Part shown: positions 4,189-64,000 of the stretch, one piece after another | Layout of the letters: each line of letters opens with the position of its first letter | Numbering within the stretch: position 1 is the first letter of the stretch | DNA from: Escherichia coli | Lineage (GTDB): Bacteria > Pseudomonadota > Gammaproteobacteria > Enterobacterales > Enterobacteriaceae | Assembly (NCBI RefSeq): GCF_003018255.1 | Contig: NZ_CP027440.1 | Length of the DNA: 64,000 nt | Direction: 5' to 3' (one strand) | The notes under the pieces: generated by a model | Told to the model about the DNA's origin: nothing | The model's database searches: none | Seen by the model: only the letters and a program-made list of their open reading frames with translations | Position numbers and translations under genes: made by a program

Positions 4189-5463
4189 TTATTTCCAGCA
4201 AATCAGACAGTAATTCTTTTTGCCGCGACGCAATAAGGTAAAACGACCAAACAGACGATCTTCTTCTTTAAAGAAGTATTCAGGATCGGACTGTTTTTCA
4301 CCGTTAATGGTGATGGCATTGGAGGCGATAGTTTTACGCGCCTGACCACGGGAAGGTTGCAGTTCAGAATCGACCAGCGCCTGCATCAGGTCTGCGCCCT
4401 TCTCCATCTCAACCATCGGTACGCCGTCCTGCGCCAGCTGTTCGAAGTCCGCTTCACTCAGCGCACTCAAGGAACCGCTGAACAGGCATTCGGTAATACG
4501 TTTTGCCGCCTGCAAACCGTCTTCACCATGCACCAGACGTGTCACCTGTTCTGCAAGCACATACTGGGCGCGCGGTGCTTTACCGCTGTTTTTATCTTCT
4601 TCTTCCAGGGCGTTGATCTCTTCAATGCTCATGAAGGTGAAGAACTTCAGGAAGCGGTAAACGTCGGCATCCGCAGTGTTGATCCAGAACTGGTAGAATT
4701 TGTACGGGCTGGTTTTCTTCGGATCCAACCAGACTGCGCCGCCTTCAGTTTTACCAAATTTGGTGCCGTCTGCTTTGGTGATCAGCGGAACGGTCAAGCC
4801 AAACACCTGATTCTGATGCAGACGACGGGTCAGGTCGATACCAGAAGTGATGTTACCCCACTGGTCAGAACCACCGATTTGCAGCACCACACCGTACTGT
4901 TTGTTCAGACAGGCGAAGTCATAACCCTGCAACAGGTTGTAGGAAAACTCAGTGAACGAAATCCCCTGATCTTCACGGTTGAGACGCTGCTTAACCGCTT
5001 CTTTGTTGATCATCTGGTTAACGGAGAAGTGTTTGCCAATATCGCGCAGGAAGGTCAGCACATTCATATTGCCGAACCAGTCATAGTTGTTCGCCGCGAT
5101 AGCAGAGTTTTCTCCACAGTCGAAATCGAGGAACGGGGCAACCTGCTTGCGGATTTTGTCCACCCACTCCTGAACAGTTTCTTCAGTGTTCAGCTTACGC
5201 TCGGCAGCTTTGAAGCTCGGGTCGCCAATCAGACCCGTCGCGCCGCCTACCAGCGCAACCGGCTTGTGGCCCGCCTGCTGGAAGCGTTTCAGGCATAACA
5301 ATGGAACAAGATGCCCCAAATGCAAGCTGTCAGCGGTAGGATCGAAGCCGCAATAGAGCGCGATCGGGCCTTGCGCCAGTCGCTCTGCTAACGCTTCCTC
5401 GTCCGTCACCTGGGCTACCAGCCCCCGCTCTTGCAATTGTTTAATCAAGTTACTGCTTGCCAT
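4189..5463 (-). CDS. tyrS: tyrosyl-tRNA synthetase
   Basis: ORF track gives 428 aa ([10 protein letters not shown]...); GGAG lies 8 nt before the second ATG, giving the 424 aa form [14 protein letters not shown]; HLGH class I motif present. Confidence 0.93.
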
Positions 5464-9504: not shown

Positions 9505-10362
9505 ATGTCAATTAAAACAATTAAGTATTTCTCAACAATCATTGTAGCGGTAGTTGCGGTTCTTGCCGGATGGTGGCTGTGGAATTATTACATGCAATCT
9601 CCGTGGACACGCGACGGGAAAATACGCGCAGAACAGGTTTCTATCACCCCTCAGGTGTCGGGACGTATTGTTGAGCTGAATATAAAAGACAACCAACTGG
9701 TTAACGCGGGGGATCTTCTGCTCACGATCGATAAAACGCCCTTTCAGATCGCCGAGCTGAACGCACAGGCTCAGTTGGCGAAAGCGCAATCTGACCTCGC
9801 AAAAGCCAATAACGAAGCGAATCGTCGTCGTCATCTCTCACAAAATTTTATTTCTGCCGAAGAACTCGATACCGCTAACCTCAATGTTAAAGCGATGCAG
9901 GCCAGTGTTGATGCCGCACAGGCGACGCTGAAACAGGCACAATGGCAACTGGCGCAAACGGAAATTCGCGCCCCGGTGAGTGGATGGGTGACTAACCTCA
10001 CTACCCGCATCGGCGATTACGCTGACACCGGGAAACCGCTGTTTGCCCTTGTCGACAGCCACTCGTTTTACGTCATTGGTTATTTTGAAGAAACCAAGTT
10101 GCGCCATATCCGCGAAGGTGCACCAGCACAAATTACCCTCTATAGTGATAACAAAACGTTACAGGGTCACGTTTCCAGTATCGGTCGGGCGATTTATGAT
10201 CAGAGCGTTGAAAGTGACTCAAACCTTATTCCGGATGTGAAACCTAACGTCCCCTGGGTTCGCCTCGCCCAACGAGTTCCCGTCCGCTTTGCGCTGGATA
10301 AAGTCCCAGGCGATGTCACGCTGGTGTCGGGCACCACCTGTAGTATTGCCGTAGGTCAATAA
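9505..10362 (+). CDS. ydhJ: membrane fusion protein (HlyD/AaeA-like efflux adaptor)
   Basis: ORF track 299 aa from 9463; internal Met [24 protein letters not shown] gives 285 aa with an N-terminal TM anchor; stop TAA overlaps the ydhK ATG in TAATG. Confidence 0.85.
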
Positions 10363-14899: not shown

Positions 14900-15997
14900 A
14901 TGTCATCTGAAAAACTGTATTCCCCACTGAAAGTGGGCGCGATCACGGCGGCAAACCGTATTTTTATGGCACCGCTGACGCGTCTGCGCAGTATTGAACC
15001 GGGTGACATCCCTACCCCGTTGATGGCGGAATACTATCGCCAACGTGCCAGTGCCGGTTTGATTATTAGCGAAGCCACGCAAATTTCTGCCCAGGCAAAA
15101 GGGTATGCTGGTGCACCTGGCATCCATAGTCCGGAACAAATTGCCGCATGGAAAAAAATTACCGCTGGCGTTCATGCTGAAAATGGTCATATGGCCGTAC
15201 AGCTGTGGCACACCGGACGCATTTCTCACGCCAGCCTGCAACCTGGCGGTCAGGCACCGGTAGCGCCTTCCGCACTTAGCGCGGGAACACGTACTTCTCT
15301 GCGCGATGAAAATGGTCAGGCGATCCGTGTTGAAACATCCATGCCGCGTGCGCTTGAACTGGAAGAGATTCCGGGTATCGTCAATGATTTCCGTCAGGCC
15401 ATTGCTAACGCGCGTGAAGCCGGTTTTGATCTGGTAGAGCTCCACTCTGCTCATGGTTATTTGCTGCATCAGTTCCTTTCTCCTTCTTCAAACCATCGTA
15501 CCGATCAGTACGGCGGCAGCGTGGAAAATCGCGCACGTCTGGTGCTGGAAGTGGTCGATGCCGGGATTGAAGAATGGGGTGCCGATCGCATTGGCATTCG
15601 CGTTTCGCCAATCGGTACTTTCCAGAACACAGATAACGGCCCGAATGAAGAAGCCGATGCACTGTATCTGATAGAACAACTGGGTAAACGCGGCATTGCT
15701 TATCTGCATATGTCAGAACCAGATTGGGCGGGGGGTGAACCGTATACTGATGCGTTCCGCGAAAAAGTACGCGCCCGTTTCCACGGTCCGATTATCGGCG
15801 CAGGTGCATACACGGTAGAAAAAGCCGAAACGCTGATCGGCAAAGGGTTAATTGATGCGGTGGCATTTGGTCGTGACTGGATTGCGAACCCGGATCTGGT
15901 CGCCCGCTTGCAACGCAAAGCTGAGCTTAACCCACAGCGTGCCGAAAGTTTTTACGGTGGCGGCGCGGAAGGCTACACTGATTACCCGACGCTGTAA
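14900..15997 (+). CDS. nemA: N-ethylmaleimide reductase (Old Yellow Enzyme family)
   Basis: 365 aa [31 protein letters not shown]...; recognised as NemA. Confidence 0.93.
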
Positions 15998-26081: not shown

Positions 26082-27107
26082 ATGGCAACAATAAAAGATG
26101 TAGCGAAACGAGCAAACGTTTCCACTACAACTGTGTCACACGTGATCAACAAAACACGTTTCGTCGCTGAAGAAACGCGCAACGCCGTGTGGGCAGCGAT
26201 TAAAGAATTACACTACTCCCCTAGCGCGGTGGCGCGTAGCCTGAAGGTTAACCACACCAAGTCTATCGGTTTGCTGGCGACCAGCAGCGAAGCGGCCTAT
26301 TTTGCCGAGATCATTGAAGCGGTTGAAAAAAATTGCTTCCAGAAAGGTTACACCCTGATTCTGGGCAATGCGTGGAACAATCTTGAGAAACAGCGGGCTT
26401 ATCTGTCGATGATGGCGCAAAAACGCGTCGATGGTCTGCTGGTGATGTGTTCTGAGTACCCAGAGCCGTTGCTGGCGATGCTGGAAGAGTATCGCCATAT
26501 CCCAATGGTGGTGATGGACTGGGGTGAAGCAAAAGCTGACTTCACCGATGCGGTCATTGATAACGCATTCGAAGGCGGCTACATGGCCGGGCGTTATCTG
26601 ATTGAACGCGGTCATCGCGAAATCGGCGTTATCCCTGGCCCGCTGGAACGTAACACCGGCGCAGGCCGCCTTGCCGGTTTTATGAAGGCGATGGAAGAAG
26701 CGATGATCAAAGTGCCGGAAAGCTGGATTGTACAGGGTGACTTTGAACCTGAATCCGGTTATCGCGCCATGCAGCAAATACTGTCGCAACCGCATCGCCC
26801 TACTGCCGTCTTCTGTGGTGGCGATATCATGGCAATGGGCGCACTTTGTGCTGCTGATGAAATGGGTCTGCGCGTGCCGCAGGATGTTTCGCTGATCGGT
26901 TATGATAACGTGCGCAACGCCCGCTATTTTACGCCAGCGCTGACCACGATCCATCAGCCAAAAGATTCGCTGGGCGAAACGGCGTTCAACATGCTGTTGG
27001 ATCGTATCGTCAATAAACGCGAAGAACCGCAGTCCATTGAAGTGCATCCGCGCTTGATTGAACGCCGCTCCGTGGCTGACGGCCCGTTCCGCGACTATCG
27101 TCGTTAA
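26082..27107 (+). CDS. purR: purine repressor (LacI family)
   Basis: 341 aa [31 protein letters not shown]...; recognised as PurR. Confidence 0.95.
26110..26125 (+). promoter_or_regulatory. PurR operator (pur box) O2 inside the purR coding region
   Basis: GAGCAAACGTTTCCAC at codons 10-15 of purR; second pur-box match. Confidence 0.65.
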
Positions 27108-28036
27108 TCACCCGTTGCGGGAGTCTCTTCCGGCTCCCGCAGCCACTCCTTATTCAGCGTCTCACTATCGCCGAGATACTCAAGCAACCAGGTTAACGCA
27201 GGCGACATATCATTTTGCTGCCATGTCAGACAACATGCCGAATCCGGGAAGGGGTTTTCCAGTTCTAGTGCTACCCACTTCCCCTCATTAAGCCACGGTT
27301 TGGCGAAATGTGTTGGCACCATCCCTATGCATAATCCTGCCGAGATACAGGTTGCCGATGATTCCCAGTCAGGCACGACAAGTCTTTTTTGGTTATCCAG
27401 CAACCAGGTAATACGTTTAGGTAGCGTTCGCGAGGTGTCTTCGCGCACCAACGACGGCCAGTTGCGCAACGTATCATCGCTGAACGGGCCATCCATCAAC
27501 GCCAGCGGGTGGTGGCTGGCAACAACGCAACTCCAGCTTAGCATCCCCATATCGCGGAAGGCATAACGACCGCCTACCGGAATCGCGCGTGTTGCGCCAA
27601 TCGCCAGTTCCACGCGCCCGTCGGAAAGCGCATCCCAGACACCGTTGAACACTTCCTGAAAGACAAGAAGTTCGACATCATCAAAATGGCGATAAAAATC
27701 AACGATCATCTGCCGTGTACGTTCTGGCCTGACAATATTATCCACTGCGATAGCTAACTGACCGCGCCAGCCGTTCGCTATCTGCTGACATTGCTGCCGG
27801 GTGATCTGCATTTTTTTGACAACAGAGCGCCCTTCTTTGAGAAACCACGCCCCGGCAGCGGTCAGTTCCACATCACGGTGACGTCGTTCAAACAGCGGCA
27901 CCGCCAGCCACTCTTCCAGCTGACGCACGGTATAGCTGACCGCAGAAGGAACGCGATGCAACTCCTGTGCCGCAGCGCTAAAACTACCATTACGCGCTAC
28001 CGCATCAACAACTTCGAGTGAATATTCTGACCACAT
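27104..28036 (-). CDS. punR: LysR-family transcriptional regulator
   Basis: 310 aa ORF with N-terminal HTH ([41 protein letters not shown]); recognised as YdhB/PunR; divergent from punC. Confidence 0.88.
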
Positions 28037-52257: not shown

Positions 52258-52626
52258 CTATACCCCAAAGCTTTCGCCACAGCCACATTCATTCTGGGCT
52301 TTAGGGTTGTGAAATTTGAATATCTGATTAAGTCCTTCACGAACGAAATCGACTTCCGTGCCATCAATAAACGGCATCGCTTGCAGCGGGACAAACAGCT
52401 TCGCGCCATCGTGTTCAAACAGCAGATCGTCTTTGTCCGGCTCGCTAACACTGTCGAGCACATAGCCAAAGCCCGCGCAGCCCGTTTGCTTCACGCCTAA
52501 GCGCACGCCGACCATACCCGGCTGCTTTGCCACCAGCTCGCGGATGTGGACAGCGGCTGCGGGTGTCAGCGTTAAGCCCTGCCAGGCGAAATCCTGTGGA
52601 TTAAAGGTTCCTGAATGCATGTCCAT
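52258..52626 (-). CDS. sufA: A-type Fe-S carrier SufA
   Basis: 122 aa ORF ending ...[11 protein letters not shown] with conserved Cys ligands; first gene of the suf operon. Confidence 0.94.
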
Positions 52627-52669
52627 CGATTTACCTCACTTCATCGCTTTCAGCGTATAACAGCATGTT

Positions 52670-52688
52670 AGTGATAATGATTATCAGT
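52670..52688 (-). promoter_or_regulatory. Fur box in the sufA promoter
   Basis: GTGATAATGATTATCAGTT matches the Fur consensus GATAATGATAATCATTATC, about 45-60 bp upstream of the sufA ATG. Confidence 0.65.
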
Positions 52689-52950
52689 TCAACCCAGCAA
52701 ACGCAGGGACTTTAGCGTAAAACATGCTTTTTACCTGCTTTTAATAAGCATAGACCCTGATGTGTGGGTTAACAGGCACGCTAAGAATTAGGTATCTCAT
52801 TGTTAGATAATGATTATTATCTAAGGAGCATTAAGGCTGTGATGAAAAAGAAAAAGTTGTATTGAAAATGACTATTTAAGGGATAGGTAAAAAAGTGCAG
52901 CGTTCAGAAATAAGAAAACCCTTAAGTCTGTGCGACACAGGCTTAAGGGT

Positions 52951-53018
52951 TTCTACCCCATCCGGCGCTTATCTCCGGCACTCACAGTGGCTTAGCTCTT
53001 GAAGGGGCGATAAGAATA
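52951..53018 (-). ncRNA. rydB: small RNA RydB (approximate ends)
   Basis: Placement from my recollection of rydB lying between sufA and ydiH on this strand; a perfect 11 bp hairpin AAACCCTTAAG/CTTAAGGGTTT at 52913-52950 plus U-rich tract lies just 3' and may be its terminator, so the 3' end may extend to about 52908. Confidence 0.45.
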
Positions 53019-53174
53019 ATCTCATAAAGCTAACCCGCCGTTTTAACACAAACTGCGATTAGTATTATTTTTGAACAATATCAGGCGGATAGATAAGCAG
53101 TATTAAGAAGGTCATCGAACCTGGACGGAGGTTAATCCAGGTCGATTTGGCAAAATTGCGGCATTAAGTCAGGA

Positions 53175-53363
53175 TCAATGCACGCCCAGACGCCAGGCAA
53201 AGTAGATTTCTTCTTTTAATTCAGCAGAAGAGAGAGTAAGCAGGTCAGCAAATTCAAGTTCTAGTTGTTTCAGACGTTTGAGATATTGGGCAGGTGAAAG
53301 ATTGCTCTGGTCACGGCGTAAAAATTCAATGGCCAGCTGGGTGGGATCAAGTTGAGTAGACAT
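53175..53363 (-). CDS. ydiH: small uncharacterised protein
   Basis: ORF track 89 aa; the form I recall is 62 aa starting MSTQLDPTQLAIEFLRRDQ... Confidence 0.75.
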   Translation of the reverse strand: MSTQLDPTQLAIEFLRRDQSNLSPAQYLKRLKQLELEFADLLTLSSAELKEEIYFAWRLGVH

Positions 53364-53462
53364 AGCATCCTCGCTTTTAGACAAGACCTGCACAGTATAC
53401 CACCGTTTACTGTGCAGATAATGACCAAAAGCAATATGCGTCACACTTTTCTGGTGACAACG

Positions 53463-53873
53463 TCACAAAATGGCGGTCGTTAATCGTGACGAACAGCACA
53501 AACGCCCTTTCTCATCGAAGATTTCAATCTGCCAGACCTGGTGACGCGAACCGAGATGCAACGGTTTGCATACGCCGCGCACCCGCCCTTCTCGTGCCGA
53601 GCGGACGTGGTTAGCATTGATTTCCAGACCAACCACCTTTTGCTCACCTTCGGTACATAAATAACCGGCAACGGAACCGATACTTTCGGCCAGTACCACG
53701 GATGCCCCTCCATGCAGCAACCCGAAAGGCTGCTTTGTCCGCGAGTCTACTGGCATTGTCGCTTCAAGGGTGTCATCACCAATATGTTCAAAGCGAATAT
53801 CCAGCAACCCCACCATGTTTCCTTCACCCATGGCATTCAGTGCTTCCAGGGTGATTTTTCGTTTCCATATCAT
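53463..53873 (-). CDS. menI: 1,4-dihydroxy-2-naphthoyl-CoA hydrolase (hotdog-fold thioesterase)
   Basis: 136 aa ORF MIWKRKITLEALNAMGEGNMVGLLDIRFEHIGDD...; recognised as YdiI/MenI. Confidence 0.9.
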   Translation of the reverse strand: MIWKRKITLEALNAMGEGNMVGLLDIRFEHIGDDTLEATMPVDSRTKQPFGLLHGGASVVLAESIGSVAGYLCTEGEQKVVGLEINANHVRSAREGRVRGVCKPLHLGSRHQVWQIEIFDEKGRLCCSSRLTTAIL

Positions 53874-56800
53874 TTAATAATCTCCAGTAAAGCCTGCACA
53901 GGATGGCGTACCCCCGTGCCTTCGACCCGTTTTACCTGGCTACGGCAGGAATATCCGGTCGCCAGACAGCGATTACGCGGCAGTCGCTGCATCGCCTGAT
54001 GCCAGGATAACTCATAGATCCCGAGCGAATTTTTATGGTTTTTCGCTTCATGTCCGTAAGTCCCTGCCATGCCGCAGCACCCCACGCTGACATTTTCCAG
54101 TTTCGCGCCAAAACGGGCAAATATCGCAACCCATTGTGCTGGCGCGCCCGGCAAAGCGGTAACTTCGGTACAGTGACCAAAGAAATACCATGATTCACCG
54201 CTGACTGTAGCCACTGGCTGTGAGTCAAGTGCGCTTGCCAGCCATTCATTCGCCAGTAAGACGTTAAACTCGCCACGTTCCTCGCCCAGCGCCAGTTTAT
54301 ATTCATCGCGATAACAAAGTACCAGCGCCGGATCGACGCCCACCATTGGCATCCCCAGCTTCGCCATACGGTTGAGGAAATCCGCCGTCTTTTTCGCCGT
54401 CTTCGCAAAACGATTAAGAAAGCCTTTGATATGCTGGGCTTTGCCATTTGGCGAAAATGGCAGTAACACAGGCTGGAAACCTAATTTTTCAACCAGACGG
54501 ACAAAATCCGCCACCACTTGCGCATCGTAATAGCTGGTAAAGGGGTCCTGCACCACCAACACCGTGCGCGCTTTCTGCTCTGCATTGAGAGCTTCAAGCT
54601 GTTCCAGCGTCATATTCGCCGAGCGATGCCCCACCATTTGTTGTTGTAGCGAGGGGACTGACAGCAGTGGCAAATCAACCATGCCGATATGTTTTTCCGA
54701 GAGCTTGCGCACCAGCGGCTGGTTAATGAAGAAGTTAAAGGTTTTCGGCGCGCGTGCCATCAGCGGTGCGTAGCTCTCGACCGTAGCAACGAGGTGGTCA
54801 CGAAGCGGGCGTAAATAACGGGTGTGATAGAGCTGCAGAAAACGAGAGCGAAACTCCGGCACATCAATTTTGATGGGGCACTGGGTCGAACACGCTTTAC
54901 AGGCAAGACAGCCCGACATCGCCTCTTTGACTTCGTGTGAGAAGTCGTATTCGCCTTTATTCGCATGCCAGCTATTGCGCGTGCGGGCAATTAACGTCCG
55001 CAAACTGACGCCGGATTCAGGCAGTTCTTGTTCCAGTTTGAGTGGGTCAACGCCGCGATCCGCCAACAAGCGCAGCCATTCACGCACCAGCGTTGCGCGC
55101 CCTTTCGGTGAATGAATCCGGTTCTGGGTGATCTTCATCGACGGACACATCGAACTACGGGCATCAAAGTTGAAGCATAAACCGTTGCCGTTACACTCCA
55201 TCGCACCGCGCCACTGCTGGCGTACCGCAATGGGGATCTGCCGATCGAATGTACCGCGCTTCACCGCGTCCACTTTCATCATCGGCGCATCGAGACCTTC
55301 TGGCGGGCAAATCTTCCCTGGGTTGAGTCGGTTATGCGGGTCAAATGCCGCTTTCACTTTGCGCAGTTCTGCAAAAAGTTCCTCACCGAAAAACGCAGGG
55401 CTGTATTCGGCACGAAAACCTTTGCCGTGTTCGCCCCACAACAAACCACCGTATTTCGCGGTAAGCGCCACTACGTCATCAGAGATTTGCTTCATCAAAA
55501 TCTCTTGTTGCGGATCGCACATATCCAGCGCAGGACGGACGTGCAAGACACCTGCGTCGACGTGACCGAACATACCGTAGCTTAAGCCGTGGCTGTCGAG
55601 CAGCGCGCGAAATTCAGCAATATAATCGGCCAGATGTTCCGGCGGTACGCAGGTATCCTCAGCAAACGGAATTGGCTTAGCGGCACCTTTGGCATTGCCA
55701 AGCAGACCAACGGCTTTTTTGCGCATCGCATAGATACGTTCAACACCCGCCAGCTCGCGGCACACCTGCCAGCCAATCACACCTGCCTGTTGGCTGGCAA
55801 TCAGTTCATCCAACCGCGCACAGAGTGCATTTACCCGCTCATCAATCAGCGTCTCATCATCACCAGCAAATTCCACAATGTTCAGCCCGAGCATTTCTTT
55901 GTCAGGCACATCGGTAATCAACTCGCTGACGGAATGCCAGACAATATCTTCCCGCGCCAGATTCAGCACTTTTGAGTCCACCGTCTCTACCGAAAGCGCC
56001 CGCGCCTCAACCATAAACGGCGCGTTACGCAGCGCGGAGTCAAAAGAGTCATATTTGACGTTCACCAGACGGCGCACTTTAGGCAAGGGCGTAATATCCA
56101 GCCGCGCTTCGGTAATAAAGGCCAGCGTCCCTTCTGAACCCGTCAGAATGCGCGTCAGGTCGAACTCGGTCATCTCATCGTTAAAGACATGACGCAGATC
56201 GTAACCGGTAAGAAAGCGGTTAAGTTTGGGGAAGTTGTCGATGATTAACTGGCGTTGCTGACGGCAACATTGATAAACCGTGTTATAAATTCGCCCGATT
56301 GCGGTATTGGTTTTACCCAGCGTTTCTGCCAGTTCGACGGGTAAAGGTTGCGTATCGAGAATATCGCCCCCCAACAACACCGCGCGTACGCCAAGTACGT
56401 GATCTGACGTTTTGCCATAGACCAGCGATCCCTGACCGGATGCATCGGTATTGATCATCCCACCGAGCGTTGCCCGGTTGCTGGTCGAAAGTTCCGGCGC
56501 AAAAAAGTAGCCGAACGGTTTCAGGTACTGATTGAGTTGATCTTTTATCACCCCGGCCTCAACGCGCACCCAGCCCTCTTCAGGGTTAATTTCGATGATG
56601 CGGTTCATATGGCGGGACATATCAACAATAATCCCCTGGTTGAGCGCCTGACCGTTAGTGCCGGTGCCGCCGCCGCGGGGGGTAAAGATCAGCGATGAAT
56701 AGCGTTCCTGCGCGGCAAGACGGGCTATAAGCGCCACATCTGCGGTTGAACGCGGAAATACCACCGCATCGGGGAGAAGTTGGTAAATACTGTTGTCGGT

Positions 56801-56926
56801 CGACATTGTCAGACGATCGGCATAACTTGTCGCCGTATCGCCGGTAAAACCTTGTTGCTCCAGCTCTTGCAAAAAATTAAGCACCAGTTGAACGACGCCG
56901 GGTGCCTGGGAAATCTGTGGAATCAT
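53870..56926 (-). CDS. ydiJ: large FAD-linked oxidase with C-terminal Fe-S/CCG domains
   Basis: ORF track 1042 aa; internal start MIPQISQAPGVVQLVLNFLQ gives 1018 aa; FAD-binding PCMH-type N-terminal domain and C-terminal Cys-rich region (CLACKACSTQCP). Confidence 0.88.
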   Translation of the reverse strand: MIPQISQAPGVVQLVLNFLQELEQQGFTGDTATSYADRLTMSTDNSIYQLLPDAVVFPRSTADVALIARLAAQERYSSLIFTPRGGGTGTNGQALNQGIIVDMSRHMNRIIEINPEEGWVRVEAGVIKDQLNQYLKPFGYFFAPELSTSNRATLGGMINTDASGQGSLVYGKTSDHVLGVRAVLLGGDILDTQPLPVELAETLGKTNTAIGRIYNTVYQCCRQQRQLIIDNFPKLNRFLTGYDLRHVFNDEMTEFDLTRILTGSEGTLAFITEARLDITPLPKVRRLVNVKYDSFDSALRNAPFMVEARALSVETVDSKVLNLAREDIVWHSVSELITDVPDKEMLGLNIVEFAGDDETLIDERVNALCARLDELIASQQAGVIGWQVCRELAGVERIYAMRKKAVGLLGNAKGAAKPIPFAEDTCVPPEHLADYIAEFRALLDSHGLSYGMFGHVDAGVLHVRPALDMCDPQQEILMKQISDDVVALTAKYGGLLWGEHGKGFRAEYSPAFFGEELFAELRKVKAAFDPHNRLNPGKICPPEGLDAPMMKVDAVKRGTFDRQIPIAVRQQWRGAMECNGNGLCFNFDARSSMCPSMKITQNRIHSPKGRATLVREWLRLLADRGVDPLKLEQELPESGVSLRTLIARTRNSWHANKGEYDFSHEVKEAMSGCLACKACSTQCPIKIDVPEFRSRFLQLYHTRYLRPLRDHLVATVESYAPLMARAPKTFNFFINQPLVRKLSEKHIGMVDLPLLSVPSLQQQMVGHRSANMTLEQLEALNAEQKARTVLVVQDPFTSYYDAQVVADFVRLVEKLGFQPVLLPFSPNGKAQHIKGFLNRFAKTAKKTADFLNRMAKLGMPMVGVDPALVLCYRDEYKLALGEERGEFNVLLANEWLASALDSQPVATVSGESWYFFGHCTEVTALPGAPAQWVAIFARFGAKLENVSVGCCGMAGTYGHEAKNHKNSLGIYELSWHQAMQRLPRNRCLATGYSCRSQVKRVEGTGVRHPVQALLEIIK

Positions 56927-57314
56927 TATATTGACCCTTTCCTGCGGTCTGTGATGTAGGTCGATACACTGTTCTTTCAGGCGGCTGCAATAGCGCACTG
57001 AAAGGTGATGTTTGTTTACTCTATGGATTTCGTGTTGCAGGAAGGCGGCAAGCGAGTGAACTCCAGGAGCTTACAACAGTAAGTAACTGGGGTGAACGAA
57101 CGTAGCCGCAGCATATGCAACTTGAAATACGACGAGTAAATCGTTTGCGTGTTGCCTGAGTTGTTGTACCACATTTTTTTCTAACACGCCCATCAGAATT
57201 AAGGGCAGAATCGGCCTGTTAAAAACCGCTGAAATTGCTCATCATTATGCAGGTGAGTTTCGCGTGTTCACGTCGCGTCGACGATTTGACGCACAAAAAA
57301 GGTGAAAAGTAGTT

Positions 57315-58427
57315 ATGGTAAATGTTCGTCAGCCCAGGGATGTCGCACAAATTCTGCTTTCGGTGCTGTTTTTAGCCATCATGATTGTGGCATGTCTGTG
57401 GATTGTTCAACCCTTTATTCTCGGCTTTGCATGGGCCGGTACAGTGGTTATCGCCACCTGGCCGGTATTGTTACGTTTGCAAAAGATCATGTTTGGCCGC
57501 CGCTCTCTCGCCGTTCTGGTGATGACGCTGTTATTAGTGATGGTGTTTATCATCCCTATTGCCTTGTTGGTTAACAGTATTGTCGATGGCAGCGGTCCGC
57601 TAATTAAAGCCATTTCCAGCGGTGACATGACGTTACCCGATCTGGCGTGGCTTAATACCATTCCGGTGATTGGCGCGAAGCTATATGCAGGCTGGCACAA
57701 CTTGCTGGATATGGGGGGTACGGCGATCATGGCGAAAGTCCGTCCTTATATTGGCACCACCACCACCTGGTTCGTTGGGCAGGCGGCGCATATCGGGCGC
57801 TTTATGGTGCATTGTGCGCTGATGCTTCTCTTCAGTGCCCTGCTGTACTGGCGCGGTGAACAGGTGGCACAAGGCATTCGCCATTTTGCAACCCGTCTGG
57901 CAGGCGTTCGCGGTGATGCTGCTGTGCTACTGGCGGCACAGGCTATCCGCGCGGTGGCGCTGGGTGTGGTGGTGACGGCGTTAGTACAGGCAGTGCTTGG
58001 CGGTATCGGCCTCGCCGTATCCGGCGTACCTTATGCAACTTTGCTCACGGTGTTAATGATCCTCTCCTGCCTTGTCCAGCTTGGACCGTTGCCGGTACTG
58101 ATTCCGGCGATTATCTGGCTCTACTGGACCGGTGATACCACCTGGGGAACGGTATTGTTAGTGTGGAGCGGTGTGGTTGGCACGCTGGATAACGTCATCC
58201 GCCCAATGTTAATTCGCATGGGTGCCGATTTACCGCTGATCCTGATCCTCTCTGGTGTTATTGGTGGTTTGATTGCTTTCGGGATGATCGGCCTGTTTAT
58301 TGGTCCGGTTCTGTTAGCCGTTTCCTGGCGTCTTTTTGCCGCGTGGGTGGAAGAAGTCCCACCGCCGACGGACCAACCGGAAGAAATTCTCGAAGAACTT
58401 GGCGAAATCGAGAAATCGAATAAGTAA
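57315..58427 (+). CDS. ydiK: AI-2E/UPF0118-family membrane transporter
   Basis: 370 aa multi-TM ORF MVNVRQPRDVAQILLSVLFLAIMIVACLW...; recognised as YdiK. Confidence 0.88.
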   Translation: MVNVRQPRDVAQILLSVLFLAIMIVACLWIVQPFILGFAWAGTVVIATWPVLLRLQKIMFGRRSLAVLVMTLLLVMVFIIPIALLVNSIVDGSGPLIKAISSGDMTLPDLAWLNTIPVIGAKLYAGWHNLLDMGGTAIMAKVRPYIGTTTTWFVGQAAHIGRFMVHCALMLLFSALLYWRGEQVAQGIRHFATRLAGVRGDAAVLLAAQAIRAVALGVVVTALVQAVLGGIGLAVSGVPYATLLTVLMILSCLVQLGPLPVLIPAIIWLYWTGDTTWGTVLLVWSGVVGTLDNVIRPMLIRMGADLPLILILSGVIGGLIAFGMIGLFIGPVLLAVSWRLFAAWVEEVPPPTDQPEEILEELGEIEKSNK

Positions 58428-58433
58428 TTTCTC

Positions 58434-58460
58434 ATCAGGCGGCTCTGCCGCCTGATTGTT
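58434..58460 (+). terminator. stem-loop downstream of ydiK
   Basis: ATCAGGCGG-CTCT-GCCGCCTGAT perfect hairpin just after the stop; weak T-tract. Confidence 0.6.
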
Positions 58461-58612
58461 AACCCCTGCTAATTGATATTTGCTTGCTCTTCCCCATATT
58501 TTCCTGCTTACCGCCATTCAGCTGGTAGTACCTGTCGCAAATTCTTTACAGTTTTTAAACTAATGAGACGAATCTGATCGACGCAAAAAGTCCGTATGCC
58601 TACTATTAGCTC

Positions 58613-58718
58613 ACGGTTATAAATCAACATATTGATTTATAAGCATGGAAATCCCCTGAGTGAAACAACGAATTGCTGTGTGTAGTCTTTGCCCATCTCC
58701 CACGATGGGCTTTTTTTT
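58613..58718 (+). ncRNA. rprA: small regulatory RNA RprA (RpoS translational activator)
   Basis: ACGGTTATAAATCAACATATTGATTTATAAGCATGGAAATCCCCTGAGTGAAACAACGAATTGCTGTGTGTAGTCTTTGCCCATCTCCCACGATGGGCTTTTTTT recognised as RprA, with terminal hairpin CCCATC...GATGGG plus T-run. Confidence 0.88.
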
Positions 58719-58855
58719 AACATTTTTCCGCTTTGCTATCTCGCCCCTCACGCTTTCCAATAATGTTGCACAAGATACTGTGACTCTCTTCAAGCCGTCA
58801 GCAGGCTGATAATGTTATTTATATTTTATTGTTTATTTCATGCAGCCATTACACG

Positions 58856-59212
58856 ATGAACGCTTATGAACTCCAGGCACTTCGCCATATTTTTGCCATG
58901 ACTATTGATGAATGCGCGACCTGGATTGCCCAGACCGATGACAGTGAAAGCTGGCGTCAGTGGGAAAATGGCAAATGCGCCATTCCTGATCGTGTAGTCG
59001 AGCAACTGTTGGCTATGCGTCAGCAACGAAAAAAACATCTTCATGCCATCATAGAGAAAATAAATAACCGCATCGGCAACAACACCATGCGTTTTTTCCC
59101 CGACTTAACCGTGTTTCAACAAGTCTACCCTGATGGCAATTTTATTGACTGGAAGATCTATCAATCGGTAGCCGCTGAATTATATGCACACGATCTGGAG
59201 CGGCTTTGTTAA
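58856..59212 (+). CDS. ydiL: DUF1870-family small protein
   Basis: ORF track 127 aa; the form I recall is 118 aa starting MNAYELQALRHIFAMTIDE... Confidence 0.8.
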   Translation: MNAYELQALRHIFAMTIDECATWIAQTDDSESWRQWENGKCAIPDRVVEQLLAMRQQRKKHLHAIIEKINNRIGNNTMRFFPDLTVFQQVYPDGNFIDWKIYQSVAAELYAHDLERLC

Positions 59213-59311
59213 TTTCTCCACACAAAGGAATTGTCTTTGTTACAACAATAATGAACGGATACTGACACAACATCTCTACACTTTTTAAAGCACCTTTGCT
59301 AAGTAGAACCT

Positions 59312-60526
59312 ATGAAAAATCCCTATTACCCTACCGCACTTGGGTTGTATTTTAATTACCTGGTGCATGGTATGGGCGTCATTTTGATGAGCCTGAATAT
59401 GGCCTCGCTGGAGACGCTTTGGCAGACTAATGCCGCGGGCGTCTCGATAGTTATCTCATCACTGGGCATTGGTCGATTAAGTGTCTTGCTTTTTGCAGGA
59501 TTATTATCCGATCGCTTTGGTCGCCGCCCTTTTATCATGCTCGGGATGTGCTGCTATATGGCCTTCTTTTTTGGCATCCTGCACACCAATAACATCATTA
59601 TCGCTTATGTTTTTGGCTTTCTGGCGGGAATGGCAAACAGTTTTCTCGATGCAGGCACCTATCCCAGTTTGATGGAAGCTTTTCCACGCTCACCGGGTAC
59701 AGCCAATATTTTAATTAAAGCATTTGTTTCCAGCGGACAATTTTTATTACCGCTAATTATCAGCCTGTTAGTGTGGGCTGAACTGTGGTTCGGTTGGTCC
59801 TTTATGATTGCCGCAGGCATTATGTTTATTAACGCTCTGCTTTTATACCGTTGTACGTTCCCACCCCATCCGGGTCGTCACTTACCTGTCATAAAGAAAA
59901 CCACCAGCTCTACGGAACATCGCTGTTCAATTATCGATTTAGCCAGTTATTCCCTATATGGCTATATCTCAATGGCAACGTTTTATCTGGTTAGCCAGTG
60001 GCTGGCACAATACGGACAATTTGTCGCCGGCATGTCATACACCATGTCGATCAAATTACTCAGTATCTACACCGTGGGTTCGCTGCTTTGTGTATTTATT
60101 ACCGCTCCACTCATTCGTAATACCGTTCGCCCAACAACATTACTGATGCTGTACACCTTTATCTCATTTATCGCCCTGCTCACCGTCTGCCTGCATCCCA
60201 CATTTTATGTGGTGATAATATTTGCTTTCGTCATCGGTTTTACCTCCGCAGGCGGTGTTGTACAAATTGGCCTGACGTTAATGGCGGAACGTTTTCCCTA
60301 CGCTAAAGGAAAAGCAACGGGGATCTATTACAGTGCGGGCAGCATTGCAACCTTTACTATTCCGTTGATTACGGCTCATCTTTCGCAAAGAAGTATTGCC
60401 GATATTATGTGGTTCGATACCGCCATCGCTGCCATCGGCTTTATACTGGCACTGTTTATTGGCTTACGCAGTCGCAAAGAAACGCGGCATCACTCGCTAA
60501 AGGAAAATGTCGCTCCGGGTGGGTAA
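59312..60526 (+). CDS. ydiM: MFS transporter
   Basis: 404 aa multi-TM ORF; paralogous to the adjacent ydiN (shared motifs LHG..VI...NM.SL and GRL..L.F.G..SD.FGRR). Confidence 0.88.
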   Translation: MKNPYYPTALGLYFNYLVHGMGVILMSLNMASLETLWQTNAAGVSIVISSLGIGRLSVLLFAGLLSDRFGRRPFIMLGMCCYMAFFFGILHTNNIIIAYVFGFLAGMANSFLDAGTYPSLMEAFPRSPGTANILIKAFVSSGQFLLPLIISLLVWAELWFGWSFMIAAGIMFINALLLYRCTFPPHPGRHLPVIKKTTSSTEHRCSIIDLASYSLYGYISMATFYLVSQWLAQYGQFVAGMSYTMSIKLLSIYTVGSLLCVFITAPLIRNTVRPTTLLMLYTFISFIALLTVCLHPTFYVVIIFAFVIGFTSAGGVVQIGLTLMAERFPYAKGKATGIYYSAGSIATFTIPLITAHLSQRSIADIMWFDTAIAAIGFILALFIGLRSRKETRHHSLKENVAPGG

Positions 60527-60752
60527 TGCAATATTCTTTTCAGGTCATGCAAGATCTTACGGATAAATAACTCTTTCTGCGCTAACTAAGGAAAATCGCG
60601 ATCAAAAACAAACTATGACATGCAATATTCCTGGAAACATAAACTTTATGCCATGTACCCAGGGAAAATTATCTTCAGTATAGTAATTATGTAAACCGTC
60701 GGAGAACAATACGTACGGTAACGAAATTATCTTTCAGCAAGGAGCTGTGAAA

Positions 60753-62018
60753 ATGTCTCAAAATAAGGCTTTCAGCACGCCATTTATCCTGGCTGTTCTT
60801 TGTATTTACTTCAGCTATTTCCTGCACGGCATTAGTGTTATTACGCTTGCCCAAAACATGACATCTTTGGCAGAAAAGTTTTCCACTGACAACGCGGGCA
60901 TTGCCTATTTAATTTCCGGTATCGGATTGGGGCGATTGATCAGTATTTTATTCTTCGGAGTGATCTCCGATAAGTTTGGTCGTCGGGCGGTGATATTAAT
61001 GGCAGTAATAATGTATCTGCTATTCTTCTTTGGTATTCCTGCTTGCCCGAATTTAACTCTCGCCTACTGTCTGGCAGTGTGCGTAGGTATCGCTAACTCA
61101 GCGCTGGATACGGGTGGCTACCCCGCGCTTATGGAATGCTTTCCGAAAGCCTCTGGTTCGGCGGTCATACTGGTTAAAGCGATGGTGTCATTCGGGCAAA
61201 TGTTCTACCCAATGCTGGTGAGCTATATGTTGCTCAATAACATCTGGTACGGCTATGGGCTGATTATTCCGGGTATTCTGTTTGTACTGATCACGCTGAT
61301 GCTGTTGAAAAGCAAATTCCCCAGCCAGTTGGTGGACGCCAGCGTAGCTAATGAATTACCGCAAATGAACAGCAAACCGTTAGTCTGGCTGGAAGGTGTT
61401 TCATCAGTACTGTTCGGTGTAGCCGCATTCTCGACCTTTTATGTGATTGTGGTGTGGATGCCCAAATATGCGATGGCTTTTGCTGGTATGTCAGAAGCTG
61501 AGGCATTAAAAACCATCTCTTATTACAGTATGGGTTCGCTGGTCTGTGTCTTTATTTTTGCCGCCCTGCTGAAAAAAATGGTCCGGCCCATCTGGGCTAA
61601 TGTATTTAACTCTGCACTGGCAACAATAACAGCTGCCATTATCTACCTGTACCCTTCTCCATTGGTGTGTAATGCCGGAGCCTTTGTTATCGGTTTCTCA
61701 GCAGCTGGCGGCATTTTACAGCTCGGCGTTTCGGTCATGTCAGAGTTTTTCCCAAAAAGCAAAGCCAAAGTCACCAGTATATATATGATGATGGGTGGAC
61801 TGGCTAACTTTGTTATTCCGCTGATTACCGGTTATCTGTCGAACATCGGCCTGCAATATATCATTGTTCTCGATTTTACTTTCGCGCTGCTGGCCCTGAT
61901 TACCGCAATTATTGTTTTTATCCGCTATTACCGCGTTTTCATTATTCCTGAAAATGATGTGCGGTTTGGCGAGCATAAATTTAGCACCCGGTTAAACACG
62001 ATTAAGCATAGAGGTTAA
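60753..62018 (+). CDS. ydiN: MFS transporter
   Basis: ORF track starts at GTG 60747; AAGGAG lies 8 nt before the ATG at 60753, giving 421 aa ([16 protein letters not shown]...); 11 bp before ydiB. Confidence 0.88.
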
Positions 62019-62029
62019 AGGAGTTAATT

Positions 62030-62896
62030 ATGGATGTTACCGCAAAATACGAATTGATTGGGTTGATGGCCTATCCCATCCGCCACAGTTTATCGCCCGA
62101 AATGCAGAATAAAGCCTTAGAAAAAGCGGGATTGCCATTTACCTATATGGCCTTTGAAGTGGATAACGATAGTTTTCCCGGAGCAATTGAAGGATTAAAA
62201 GCCCTCAAAATGCGCGGAACTGGTGTATCAATGCCGAACAAACAACTGGCGTGTGAATATGTTGATGAATTAACGCCAGCGGCCAAACTGGTGGGAGCCA
62301 TCAACACCATCGTTAATGATGATGGCTATCTGCGTGGCTATAACACCGACGGCACGGGTCATATTCGCGCCATTAAAGAGAGCGGTTTTGATATCAAAGG
62401 CAAAACGATGGTGCTATTAGGGGCCGGTGGTGCCTCAACGGCAATTGGCGCGCAGGGGGCAATTGAAGGTTTAAAAGAAATTAAACTCTTTAACCGTCGG
62501 GATGAGTTCTTCGATAAAGCTCTCGCCTTCGCGCAGCGGGTTAACGAAAACACCGATTGCGTCGTGACAGTCACCGATCTCGCCGATCAGCAAGCCTTTG
62601 CAGAAGCCCTGGCTTCCGCCGACATTTTAACCAATGGCACCAAAGTGGGTATGAAACCCCTTGAGAATGAATCATTGGTTAATGATATCAGTCTGTTACA
62701 TCCGGGACTTCTGGTCACTGAATGCGTGTATAACCCTCATATGACGAAGTTATTGCAGCAGGCGCAACAAGCGGGTTGCAAAACGATTGATGGATACGGC
62801 ATGTTGTTGTGGCAAGGGGCTGAACAGTTCACGTTATGGACTGGCAAAGATTTCCCTCTGGAATATGTTAAACAGGTCATGGGGTTCGGTGCCTGA
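62030..62896 (+). CDS. ydiB: quinate/shikimate dehydrogenase (NAD(P)-dependent)
   Basis: 288 aa [38 protein letters not shown]... with Rossmann GAGGAS motif; recognised as YdiB. Confidence 0.93.
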
Positions 62897-62926
62897 CAGG
62901 CTGACCGCGTGCAGAAAGGGTAAAAA

Positions 62927-63685
62927 ATGAAAACCGTAACTGTAAAAGATCTCGTCATTGGTACGGGCGCACCTAAAATCATCGTCTCGCTGATGGCGAA
63001 AGATATCGCCAGCGTGAAATCCGAAGCTCTCGCCTATCGTGAAGCGGACTTTGATATTCTGGAATGGCGTGTGGACCACTATGCCGATCTCTCCAATGTG
63101 GAGTCTGTCATAGCGGCAGCAAAAATTCTCCGTGAAACCATGCCAGAAAAACCGCTGCTGTTTACCTTCCGCAGTGCCAAAGAAGGCGGCGAGCAGGCGA
63201 TTTCCACCGAGGCTTATATTGCACTCAATCGTGCAGCCATCGACAGCGGCCTGGTTGATATAATCGATCTGGAGTTATTTACCGGCGATGATCAGGTTAA
63301 AGAAACCGTCGCCTACGCCCACGCGCATGATGTGAAAGTTGTCATGTCCAACCATGACTTCCATAAAACGCCGGAAGCCGAAGAAATCATTGCCCGTCTG
63401 CGCAAAATGCAGTCCTTCGATGCCGATATTCCTAAGATTGCGCTGATGCCGCAAAGTACCAGCGATGTGCTGACGTTGCTTGCTGCGACCCTGGAGATGC
63501 AGGAGCAGTATGCCGATCGTCCAATCATCACGATGTCGATGGCAAAAACTGGCGTAATTTCTCGTCTGGCTGGTGAAGTATTTGGCTCGGCGGCAACTTT
63601 TGGTGCGGTAAAAAAAGCCTCTGCGCCAGGGCAAATCTCGGTAAATGATTTGCGTACGGTATTAACTATTTTACATCAGGCATAA
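62927..63685 (+). CDS. aroD: 3-dehydroquinate dehydratase (type I)
   Basis: 252 aa [40 protein letters not shown]...; recognised as AroD. Confidence 0.95.
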
Positions 63686-63830
63686 GCAATAATATTTCGG
63701 CGGGAATACTCTCCCCCGCCGAACTAAAAAAAGTATTTTTAACCGTATTTAATAAAAATATTTCGTGAGTCTCTGTGCGCTAATTCTCCATCTGGCGTAG
63801 GGAAAATCACACCTGAATCAGGAATTAACA

Positions 63831-64000
63831 ATGAAACCTGTAAAACCACCTCGCATTAATGGACGAGTGCCGGTCCTGTCGGCACAGGAAGCGGTGAATT
63901 ATATTCCCGACGAAGCAACACTTTGTGTGTTAGGCGCTGGCGGCGGTATTCTGGAAGCCACCACGTTAATTACTGCTCTTGCTGATAAATATAAACAGAC
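63831..64000 (+). CDS. ydiF: acyl-CoA:acetate CoA-transferase, N-terminal fragment (3' end outside window)
   Basis: ATG at 63831 preceded by GGAATTAACA; translation MKPVKPPRINGRVPVLSAQEAVNYIPDEATLCVLGAGGGILEATTLITALADKYKQ...; recognised as YdiF. Confidence 0.8.
   Translation, partial: MKPVKPPRINGRVPVLSAQEAVNYIPDEATLCVLGAGGGILEATTLITALADKYKQ

Follow-up and report, generated by a model that had tools for sequence, protein, structure and literature searches.

Gene clusters for the catabolism of quinate and shikimate are known from Acinetobacter (quiBCXA), Corynebacterium (qsuABCD), Pseudomonas (quiC1), and fungi (qut/qa). Carnitine/crotonobetaine reduction in Escherichia coli is carried out by CaiABCD and FixABCX, caffeate respiration in Acetobacterium woodii by CarABCDE, and the ansJKLM/chcA genes of Streptomyces collinus specify a route from shikimate to cyclohexanecarboxyl-coenzyme A (CoA). 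In the 1970s, Whiting and Coggins reportedly found that cider lactobacilli reduce quinate and shikimate to dihydroshikimate. Here we compare with these systems the E. coli genes ydiL-ydiM-ydiN-ydiB-aroD, which occupy positions 58856 to 63685 of a 64,000-nucleotide stretch of contig NZ_CP027440.1 (assembly GCF_003018255.1), hereafter the window. The genes encode two transporters of the major facilitator superfamily (MFS), YdiM and YdiN, beside a quinate/shikimate dehydrogenase (YdiB) and a 3-dehydroquinate dehydratase, or dehydroquinase (AroD). We argue that they probably make up the left end of an ancient ydi cluster, passed on by vertical descent, that handles hydroaromatic acids from plants.

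Several published observations bear on these genes. A passage in PMC4585142 summarizes work from 2006 in which ydiN, ydiB, and aroD were induced together and YdiN was seen as a carrier of shikimate or by-products. Hu et al. grouped YdiL, YdiM, and YdiN with the aro genes in 2009 (PMC2672614), and a 2023 study found that about 75% of YdiM/YdiN homologues adjoin shikimate pathway genes (PMC10588857). Deletion of ydiN raised the shikimate titer 1.3-fold (PMC8788726). Quinate is a dead-end metabolite in EcoCyc, and its transport is an orphan reaction in the model iJO1366 (PMC3781023). The functional idea of a hydroaromatic module has already been published (2006, 2009, and 2023); it seems reasonable, if unproven.

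RESULTS

Gene context of the YdiM/YdiN transporters across species

We scanned one genome per species with patterns drawn from an alignment of YdiM and YdiN, which gave 78 loci, and searched by tblastn for neighboring genes within 10 kb of the YdiM/YdiN relative. A YdiB-like gene lay within this distance in 66 of the 78 loci and an AroD-like type I dehydroquinase gene in 61. The order ydiL-ydiM-ydiN-ydiB-aroD-ydiF-ydiO-ydiP-ydiQ-ydiR-ydiS was kept in Escherichia, Citrobacter, Kosakonia, Intestinirhabdus, and Yersinia, and also in Serratia, Dickeya, Brenneria, Symbiopectobacterium, and Prodigiosinella. A tight unit of dehydrogenase, YdiM-like transporter, and dehydroquinase genes was found in Lactobacillaceae, Carnobacterium, Vagococcus, Megasphaera, Paenibacillus, Sporolactobacillus, and some clostridia. 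In Telmatospirillum (locus L088), a YdiN relative (50% identity) sits within a classical catabolic quinate cluster that also encodes a TetR regulator and three enzymes, namely a dehydrogenase, a type II dehydroquinase, and a QuiC1-type dehydroshikimate dehydratase; at two metagenomic loci, a YdiN relative stands next to a shikimate kinase gene. As a whole, these contexts favor hydroaromatic acids as the substrates. Gene context in 78 species thereby favors the proposal of the first-pass annotation, made from the sequence of the window, that the locus is a hydroaromatic transport and conversion module rather than a set of purely biosynthetic genes.

Prodigiosinella (L044) also carries, between ydiL and ydiM at positions 4703 to 5152 of its locus, a shikimate kinase-like ORF (open reading frame) with 33% identity to the kinase of locus L082. 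This ORF would be a further tie of the ydiL-ydiM submodule to shikimate.

Transporters and enzymes

YdiM (404 amino acids; 59312 to 60526, + strand) and YdiN (421 amino acids from its ATG; 60753 to 62018, + strand) align end to end (BLASTP, 37% identity over 385 residues, E = 6e-87), which bears out the earlier claim that they are paralogues. They are anciently diverged members of two old subfamilies lying side by side and not the products of a recent tandem duplication. In the Firmicute clusters, the MFS gene in the middle, flanked by the dehydrogenase and dehydroquinase genes, encodes the orthologue of YdiM (46 to 58% identity); YdiN falls in a proteobacterial clade whose genes accompany ydiB-aroD-ydiF-ydiO. 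Membership in the MFS was seen in PF07690 matches of a 99%-identical YdiN cluster representative and of all listed homologues, and in partial NCBIfam MFS matches to about residues 10 to 390 of YdiM and YdiN. Against the aromatic acid:H+ symporter model TIGR00895 (cutoff, 418.55 bits), YdiM scored 40.6 and YdiN 42.3 bits, so that the hidden Markov model suggests just a distant likeness to that family (TC 2.A.1.15). TCDB classes the two as 2.A.1.15.12 and 2.A.1.15.13, according to PMC10588857.

YdiB (288 amino acids; 62030 to 62896, + strand) is a dehydrogenase linked to nicotinamide adenine dinucleotide (NAD). It scored 669.9 bits against the NCBIfam equivalog model NF009390 (cutoff, 349), is essentially identical to PDB entries 1NPD/1O9B (E = 4e-194), and retains K71, D107, and D158, that is, the catalytic Lys/Asp pair and the acidic residue favoring NAD. 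AroD (252 amino acids; 62927 to 63685, + strand) is a type I enzyme that scored 290.8 bits against TIGR01093 (cutoff, 139.3) and retains the Schiff-base residue K170, plus H143 and E86. Together, YdiB and AroD can run the conversion of quinate to 3-dehydroquinate, 3-dehydroshikimate, and shikimate. A QuiC1-type dehydroshikimate dehydratase query, taken from L088, matched loci L042 and L088 only and nothing in the E. coli locus (L001, the five genes with 6 kb of flank at either end); the search did not extend to AsbF/QsuB-type enzymes.

Linkage to double-bond reductases

The genes that follow aroD encode a family I CoA-transferase (ydiF), an acyl-CoA dehydrogenase (ydiO), and an AraC-type regulator (ydiP), and further 3' lie ydiQ and ydiR, for the beta and alpha subunits of an electron transfer flavoprotein (ETF), and ydiS, for a FixC-like protein. 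The 5' end of ydiF (63831 to 64000, + strand), which starts this ydiF-ydiO/ydiP/ydiQRS block, is inside the window, and the gene continues beyond it. Orthologues of ydiF-ydiO-ydiQRS (70 to 84% identity) accompany the genes for the transporter, the dehydrogenase, and the dehydroquinase in no fewer than four arrangements: that of Enterobacterales, that of Sutterella and L093, that of L080 and L087, and that of L092. In Sutterella (Betaproteobacteria), ydiS-ydiR-ydiQ occupy one strand and ydiN-ydiB-aroD-ydiF-ydiO the other (60 to 84% identity). The metagenomic loci L080 and L087 (Proteobacteria) hold a tight operon of transporter, ydiF, ydiO, ydiQ, ydiR, ydiB, and aroD genes, with ydiS next after aroD in L080; identities there are 70% for YdiF, 83% for YdiO, and 77% for YdiB. 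In L092, which was found from the YdiO side, the genes encode a transporter, a CoA-transferase, an acyl-CoA dehydrogenase, two ETF subunits, a dehydroquinase, FixC, FixX, and an acyl-CoA synthetase.

In the Firmicutes, ydiF-ydiO-ydiQRS are replaced by a gene for a protein of 670 to 700 amino acids that carries flavin mononucleotide and flavin adenine dinucleotide (FMN/FAD) and belongs to the FadH 2,4-dienoyl-CoA reductase/enoate reductase family. This gene adjoins the Firmicute trio in 12 of 35 genome loci (L045 to L079) and in three metagenome loci (L084, L085, and L089), and Carnobacterium- and Vagococcus-like contigs likewise have it next to the trio. An FMN/FAD reductase in Firmicutes and the ydi set in Proteobacteria imply that two unrelated reducers of a C=C bond conjugated to a carboxyl or thioester group were recruited to the same module. 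By sequence, YdiO is a generic acyl-CoA dehydrogenase with CarC among its PDB matches; homologues at 62 to 67% identity are named crotonobetainyl-CoA reductase by their sources. The parts list of CoA-transferase, acyl-CoA dehydrogenase, ETF alpha and beta, and FixC/X is present and conserved at ydiF-ydiO-ydiQRST.

Our literature search, which was not exhaustive, found no paper joining ydiB/aroD with ydiF/ydiO and nothing on hydroshikimate or lactobacillus quinate genes that links them, and the linkage of the transporter, dehydrogenase, and dehydroquinase genes to ydiF-ydiO-ydiQRS appears to be a new point. Eggerthella lenta and Sutterella wadsworthensis reduce the ring C=C bond of shikimate to give 3,4,5-trihydroxycyclohexanecarboxylate (hydroshikimate), a reaction by which S. 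wadsworthensis grows and which supports growth in both (bioRxiv 10.1101/2022.12.26.521950). Taken together, the reductase linkage and the physiology of Sutterella suggest that the ring of quinate/shikimate is reduced. We tentatively propose, as an idea that may well prove wrong, that ydiN-ydiB-aroD and ydiF-ydiO-(ydiP)-ydiQRST-fadK form one unit, a pathway of anaerobic quinate/shikimate reduction.

The ydi sets of the Sutterella loci L037 and L039 and of L093 have a G+C content at third codon positions (GC3) of 0.8 to 0.9. The set looks to have been transferred horizontally in its entirety long ago and to have ameliorated since then.

Locus layout and transcription unit

All five genes lie on the + strand where the first-pass annotation had placed them; our ORF calls agree on this with RefSeq, which annotates the same genes in an E. 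coli chromosome of 99.9% identity. A megablast search with positions 58500 to 64000 found matches in 5425 of 5426 complete E. coli genomes, and in 5315 of the matching genomes a single match covered at least 80% of the query. The genes are therefore part of the core E. coli chromosome and are already annotated.

The ydiN-ydiB spacing is exactly 11 bp, as claimed: the ydiN stop codon at 62016 to 62018 is followed by 11 bases (AGGAGTTAATT; 62019 to 62029, + strand) and then by the ydiB ATG, and the AGGAG ribosome-binding site of ydiB fills this gap. The ydiB-aroD gap is 30 bp. We looked for terminator-like sites in both gaps and found none; the only hairpin lies 3' of aroD (63696 to 63723), is G+C rich with an 11-bp stem, and is kept in most Enterobacteriaceae, with no T-run on the + strand. 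It is likely to mark the end of a ydiN-ydiB-aroD transcript. Given the 11- and 30-bp gaps, the ribosome-binding site within the shorter of them, and a hairpin only after aroD, the three genes appear to be packed like one operon, and the sequence is compatible with a single transcript.

Two observations concern the ydiN reading frame. An in-frame GTG at 60747 stands two codons 5' of the annotated ATG (region 60747 to 60755), and since both codons are kept in many Enterobacteriaceae, the sequence alone does not settle the true start. One assembly holds a 668-amino-acid protein in which YdiN (100% identity, 91% of the query) is fused to shikimate dehydrogenase domains, presumably through a frameshift or deletion over the 11-bp junction or through an assembly error.

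Candidate operators at the ydiN and ydiQ promoters

The ydiM-ydiN gap holds a candidate distal operator at 60527 to 60555 (+ strand), made of two direct TGCAAKAT repeats with cores at 60527 to 60534 and 60548 to 60555 (21 bp apart), and a candidate proximal operator at 60621 to 60637 (+ strand; TGCAATATTCCTGGAAA), 132 bp 5' of the ydiN ATG. A -10-like TATAGT follows at 60679 to 60684. In a footprint of this gap across 16 loci (E. coli and 15 other Enterobacteriaceae), both the TGCAAKAT cores (60527 and 60548) and the longer proximal site (60621) were conserved. The ydiP-ydiQ gap has the same layout, with TGCAAKAT cores at 15163 and 15236 of L001; in each of the two promoters, 73 bp separate the distal from the proximal site, which stands 126 to 132 bp before the start codon. 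Of 89 loci, 30 contain the 17-mer TGCAAKATWSYTGGNAA, which is confined to positions 5' of ydiN and 5' of ydiQ. It is important to note that this pattern was built from the two E. coli sites, so that its recurrence in other species alone counts as evidence. The 10-mer ATGCAATATT by itself showed no enrichment over chance; only the longer 17-mer, taken with its position, carries information. The ydiN and ydiQ promoters thus appear to share a two-site candidate operator layout, which would be a new point. YdiP was considered as the factor for the shared operator and rejected, as published ChIP-exo data (chromatin immunoprecipitation with exonuclease digestion; aerobic glucose) have no sites at ydiN, ydiQ, or ydiF. 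One study ties YdiP to cold-shock genes.

Two further elements were seen in these intergenic regions. The aroD-ydiF gap (63744 to 63765, and loci L007 to L043) has a different conserved palindrome 5' of ydiF, which reads GAATATT...AATATTC in Citrobacter and Kosakonia and CGTATTTAATAAAAATATTTCG in E. coli and suggests a separate regulator for ydiF-ydiO. In Kosakonia oryziphila (L043), an insertion of ~200 bp with terminal inverted repeats (GAGCCTATCCCAGTAGG ... CCTAATGGGATAGGCTC) lies in the ydiM-ydiN gap at about 9600 to 9900; it is absent from sister species and looks like a miniature transposable element.

A LysR gene between ydiM and ydiN

A divergent LysR gene stands between ydiM and ydiN in Yersinia, Dickeya, Brenneria, Serratia, and relatives. 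It shares 44 to 47% identity (E = 1e-79 to 1e-98) with the divergent LysR gene found upstream of the Firmicute clusters. With the cluster LysR as the tblastn query, full-length matches of at least 24% identity were found in 49 loci; there was no such match among the Escherichia, Citrobacter, and Kosakonia loci or in the window. A tblastn search of the window for a LysR remnant likewise found none, the best match being one of 22% identity to an unrelated LysR gene at 27104 to 28036. The 226-bp, AT-rich ydiM-ydiN gap of E. coli would then be the former place of the LysR gene, again a new point, and the loss of this activator may explain why no quinate phenotype is known for K-12.

YdiL and the region upstream of ydiM

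YdiL (118 amino acids; 58856 to 59212, + strand, from the ORF list and RefSeq annotation) matches the Aca2/YdiL family PF08965 over its full length (residues 1 to 118, E = 4e-60), PDB 1S4K (E = 8e-47), and the Aca2 structure (E = 2.5e-14). It is probably a helix-turn-helix DNA-binding regulator, and its gene is always upstream of ydiM in Enterobacterales. Aca2 has been shown to bind DNA and to repress its own gene. YdiL was recognized earlier as an Aca2-like protein (PMC8434428), and the ydiL promoter turns on in the mouse gut (PMC6561318). A search around ydiL for inverted repeats resembling an Aca2-like operator gave one weak palindrome only, within the coding region. A block of about 37 bp 5' of ydiL (58758 to 58794, + strand; CAATAATGTTGCACAAGATACTGTGACTCTCTTCAAG) is near invariant across Escherichia, Citrobacter, Kosakonia, and Intestinirhabdus, with variable flanks, and is probably the ydiL promoter or operator. 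It includes TGTGACTCTCTTCAAG (TGTGA-N6-TCAAG), a CRP-like pair of half-sites of which one is good; this site could relate to the reported induction under carbon limitation and in the gut.

In the ydiL-ydiM gap, a conserved short dyad, AGC-N4-7-GCT (TAAAGCACCTTTGCTAAG; 59270 to 59300), stands right before the ydiM start and may be an operator or a translational hairpin. No obvious ribosome-binding site precedes ydiM.

Other features of the window

The rprA small RNA gene lies between ydiK and ydiL at 58613 to 58720 (Rfam RF00034, 118.5 bits), and its terminator hairpin (58691 to 58710) is followed by a T-run. RprA was the only hit in an Rfam scan of 58300 to 64000 (E ≤ 1), with no riboswitch or leader 5' of ydiM or ydiN. 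For ydiJ (53870 to 56998, - strand), the longest ORF starts from a GTG and has 1042 amino acids; RefSeq gives 1018 (53870 to 56926).

DISCUSSION

Proposed function and the points that weigh against it

We favor a role of the ydi cluster in the handling of plant-derived hydroaromatic acids. YdiN and YdiM would move quinate, shikimate, or dehydroshikimate through the membrane, most probably into the cell, and YdiB, AroD, and YdiB again would turn quinate into shikimate by a route that is redox neutral overall. The cytoplasmic products would feed aromatic biosynthesis as a form of salvage and also the adjacent system of YdiF CoA-transferase and YdiO/YdiQRST enoyl-CoA reductase. There, shikimate would be made a CoA thioester by YdiF or FadK, and its ring double bond would be saturated by YdiO with electrons delivered through YdiQRST, giving an anaerobic electron sink. 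YdiL would act as the local helix-turn-helix regulator.

A number of observations weigh against this proposal. Synteny inside Enterobacterales may be simple inheritance, and one gene of the YdiO clade (74% identity) stands alone, with no such neighbors. The acyl-CoA dehydrogenase of locus L086 reaches just 67% identity to YdiO, a CaiA-like level, and a cai-like set is nearby, so that this locus is ambiguous and carries less weight as linkage evidence. YdiP ChIP-exo in aerobic glucose medium gave no peaks at ydiN, ydiQ, or ydiF. Our scan for consensus promoters and terminators gave counts not above those of shuffled sequences and, apart from the hairpin after aroD, was discarded as evidence. 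On the experimental side, ydiM has been tied to bo3 oxidase activity/copper and to isoprenol tolerance (PMC10588857), EcoCyc curators saw no compelling evidence of quinate transport by K-12 (PMC3781023), and ydiFO, ydiQRST, and fadK are cited as genes of anaerobic fatty acid beta-oxidation (PMC3967523). The work on Sutterella assigned no enzyme to its shikimate reduction, and the species has many flavin reductases (bioRxiv 10.1101/2022.12.26.521950).

Alternative explanations

The alternative that survives best, although we think it unlikely, is an overflow valve: YdiN, and perhaps YdiM, would export quinate, dehydroshikimate, or shikimate that accumulates during a backup of the pathway, and YdiB and AroD would run backwards to by-products. 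According to a passage of PMC4585142, the idea came from transcriptome data on a strain that overproduces shikimate, taken when carbon was limiting, and YdiB overexpression shifts the product spectrum (PMC8788726). However, deletion of ydiN raised extracellular shikimate by the same 1.3-fold that was noted above, as does deletion of the importer gene shiA, which fits re-uptake (PMC8788726). Further, the catabolic quinate cluster that includes a YdiN relative requires import, and an export valve would have no need of the conserved coupling to reductases and shikimate kinase.

Still less probable is a coincidence of neighbors, in which aroD and ydiB are purely biosynthetic and YdiM (copper for bo3 oxidase, or solvent efflux) and YdiN are unrelated carriers. 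In keeping with this view, neither transporter falls into an NCBIfam family defined by its substrate. Chance proximity is hard to reconcile with a trio that recurs in Firmicutes, Betaproteobacteria, and Alphaproteobacteria in varied orders, with tight spacing and a common LysR regulator. The operon-like 11-bp ydiN-ydiB junction argues against it as well, as does the co-induction of ydiN, ydiB, and aroD reported in the part of PMC4585142 cited above.

The last alternative concerns base composition. As the first-pass annotation had judged by eye, the transporter genes are AT richer than their neighbors: ydiL, ydiM, and ydiN have the three lowest G+C contents (0.454, 0.459, and 0.452) of the 45 genes in the window (mean, 0.511; standard deviation, 0.027), with ydiB at 0.478 and aroD at 0.498. 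Their GC3 is 0.479, 0.494, and 0.519, respectively (window mean, 0.531; standard deviation, 0.044), so that ydiM and ydiN lie less than one standard deviation from the mean. Synonymous codon use, as scaled chi-square, is 0.158 for ydiM and 0.101 for ydiN (window mean, 0.183; standard deviation, 0.087). Thus, the per-gene comparison gave a nonuniform G+C content together with ordinary synonymous codon usage and GC3. The deficit sits in codon position 1 (G+C of 0.45 versus about 0.59), and the FYMINK/GARP ratios of the three low-G+C proteins are the highest in the window (1.52, 1.40, and 1.25; mean, 0.89). In other genera the GC3 of the orthologues is typical of each host (about 0.62 in Citrobacter, 0.65 in Kosakonia, and 0.88 in Sutterella), and their total G+C is still a few points under that of their neighbors. 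Because the deficit is in codon position 1 and GC3 and codon use are ordinary, the AT-richness is an amino acid composition effect, a property of the proteins and not a sign of recent import; any transfer was ancient.

A recent AT-rich island from a low-G+C donor, to which one could refer the lowest G+C in the window and a family common in Firmicutes whose LysR, transporter, and enzyme genes are 40 to 58% identical across phyla, is highly improbable given host-like GC3 and synonymous codon usage, GC3 that follows each host genus, a block present in 5425 of 5426 E. coli genomes, a position and order kept from Escherichia to Yersinia and Dickeya, and block borders with neither mobility genes nor tRNA. 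Any recent acquisition event is already contradicted, and the suggestion of a separately acquired or diverged segment fails on the same codon statistics, near-universal presence, and synteny across Enterobacterales. The frequency of the family in Firmicutes and the 40 to 58% identity across phyla make an ancient interphylum transfer of the module plausible. A second dip in G+C (0.41 to 0.45) occurs at 52500 to 53500, around the small gene ydiH and upstream of sufA, and is as deep as that over ydiL-ydiN.

Implications

Taken alone, the five-gene observation restates a published hypothesis on annotated core genes and adds little. The reductase linkage, the lost LysR gene, and the shared operator offer a testable lead on how enteric and gut bacteria may use abundant dietary plant acids. 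They touch the question of why E. coli keeps a second, NAD-linked quinate/shikimate dehydrogenase and the weakly documented roles of ydiF, ydiO, and ydiQRST. If the pathway proposed here is real, conversion between quinate and shikimate with no net redox change would explain the dual specificity of YdiB and its NAD preference. The pathway would parallel carnitine and caffeate reduction, with Firmicutes reaching the same end by a CoA-independent enoate reductase. About ten E. coli y-genes would gain a function, and the dead-end metabolite quinate would gain a source and a fate.

Comparison with known systems

The E. coli locus shares with the catabolic qui, qut, and qsu clusters the joint encoding of a transporter, a quinate/shikimate dehydrogenase, and a dehydroquinase with a dedicated regulator. 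In this respect the likeness to qui/qut clusters stood, and it broke down at the dehydroshikimate dehydratase, which the E. coli locus lacks. Unlike those clusters, it has no match to a QuiC1-type dehydroshikimate dehydratase and no protocatechuate branch, which argues that this is not a carbon source pathway. Its dehydroquinase is of type I and the sole biosynthetic one of E. coli, and its dehydrogenase is cytoplasmic and NAD-linked, whereas QuiA depends on pyrroloquinoline quinone. ShiA, the E. coli importer of shikimate/dehydroshikimate, is likewise an MFS carrier and would share the substrate class predicted for YdiM and YdiN; deletion of shiA or of ydiN raises the shikimate titer similarly (PMC8788726). 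However, ShiA is a member of a different MFS family, and its gene stands apart from those for pathway enzymes.

For the reductive half, the S. collinus ansJKLM/chcA route is a precedent for shikimate-derived acids that are handled as CoA thioesters and reduced by acyl-CoA dehydrogenase-like and enoyl-CoA reductases. It is a biosynthetic route to antibiotic starter units, and the likeness drawn here is one of pathway logic. In its list of parts, ydiF-ydiO-ydiQRST-fadK matches the Cai/Fix and CarABCDE systems: it likewise comprises a CoA-transferase and/or ligase, an acyl-CoA dehydrogenase that would act as the enoyl-CoA reductase, ETF alpha and beta, and FixC/FixX-like proteins. It differs from the Cai system in that YdiF is a family I and CaiB a family III CoA-transferase, and from both in that its genes stand with those for a dehydrogenase, a dehydroquinase, and an MFS carrier, a linkage unique to the ydi set. 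In E. lenta, unlike in our proposal, a periplasmic-type flavin reductase and not a CoA-dependent system has been implicated (bioRxiv 10.1101/2022.12.26.521950). The cider lactobacilli compare well with the ydi module in that Lactobacillaceae carry the ydiB-ydiM-aroD trio, and so does shikimate respiration in S. wadsworthensis, whose genome carries ydiN-ydiB-aroD-ydiF-ydiO together with ydiQRS (L039).

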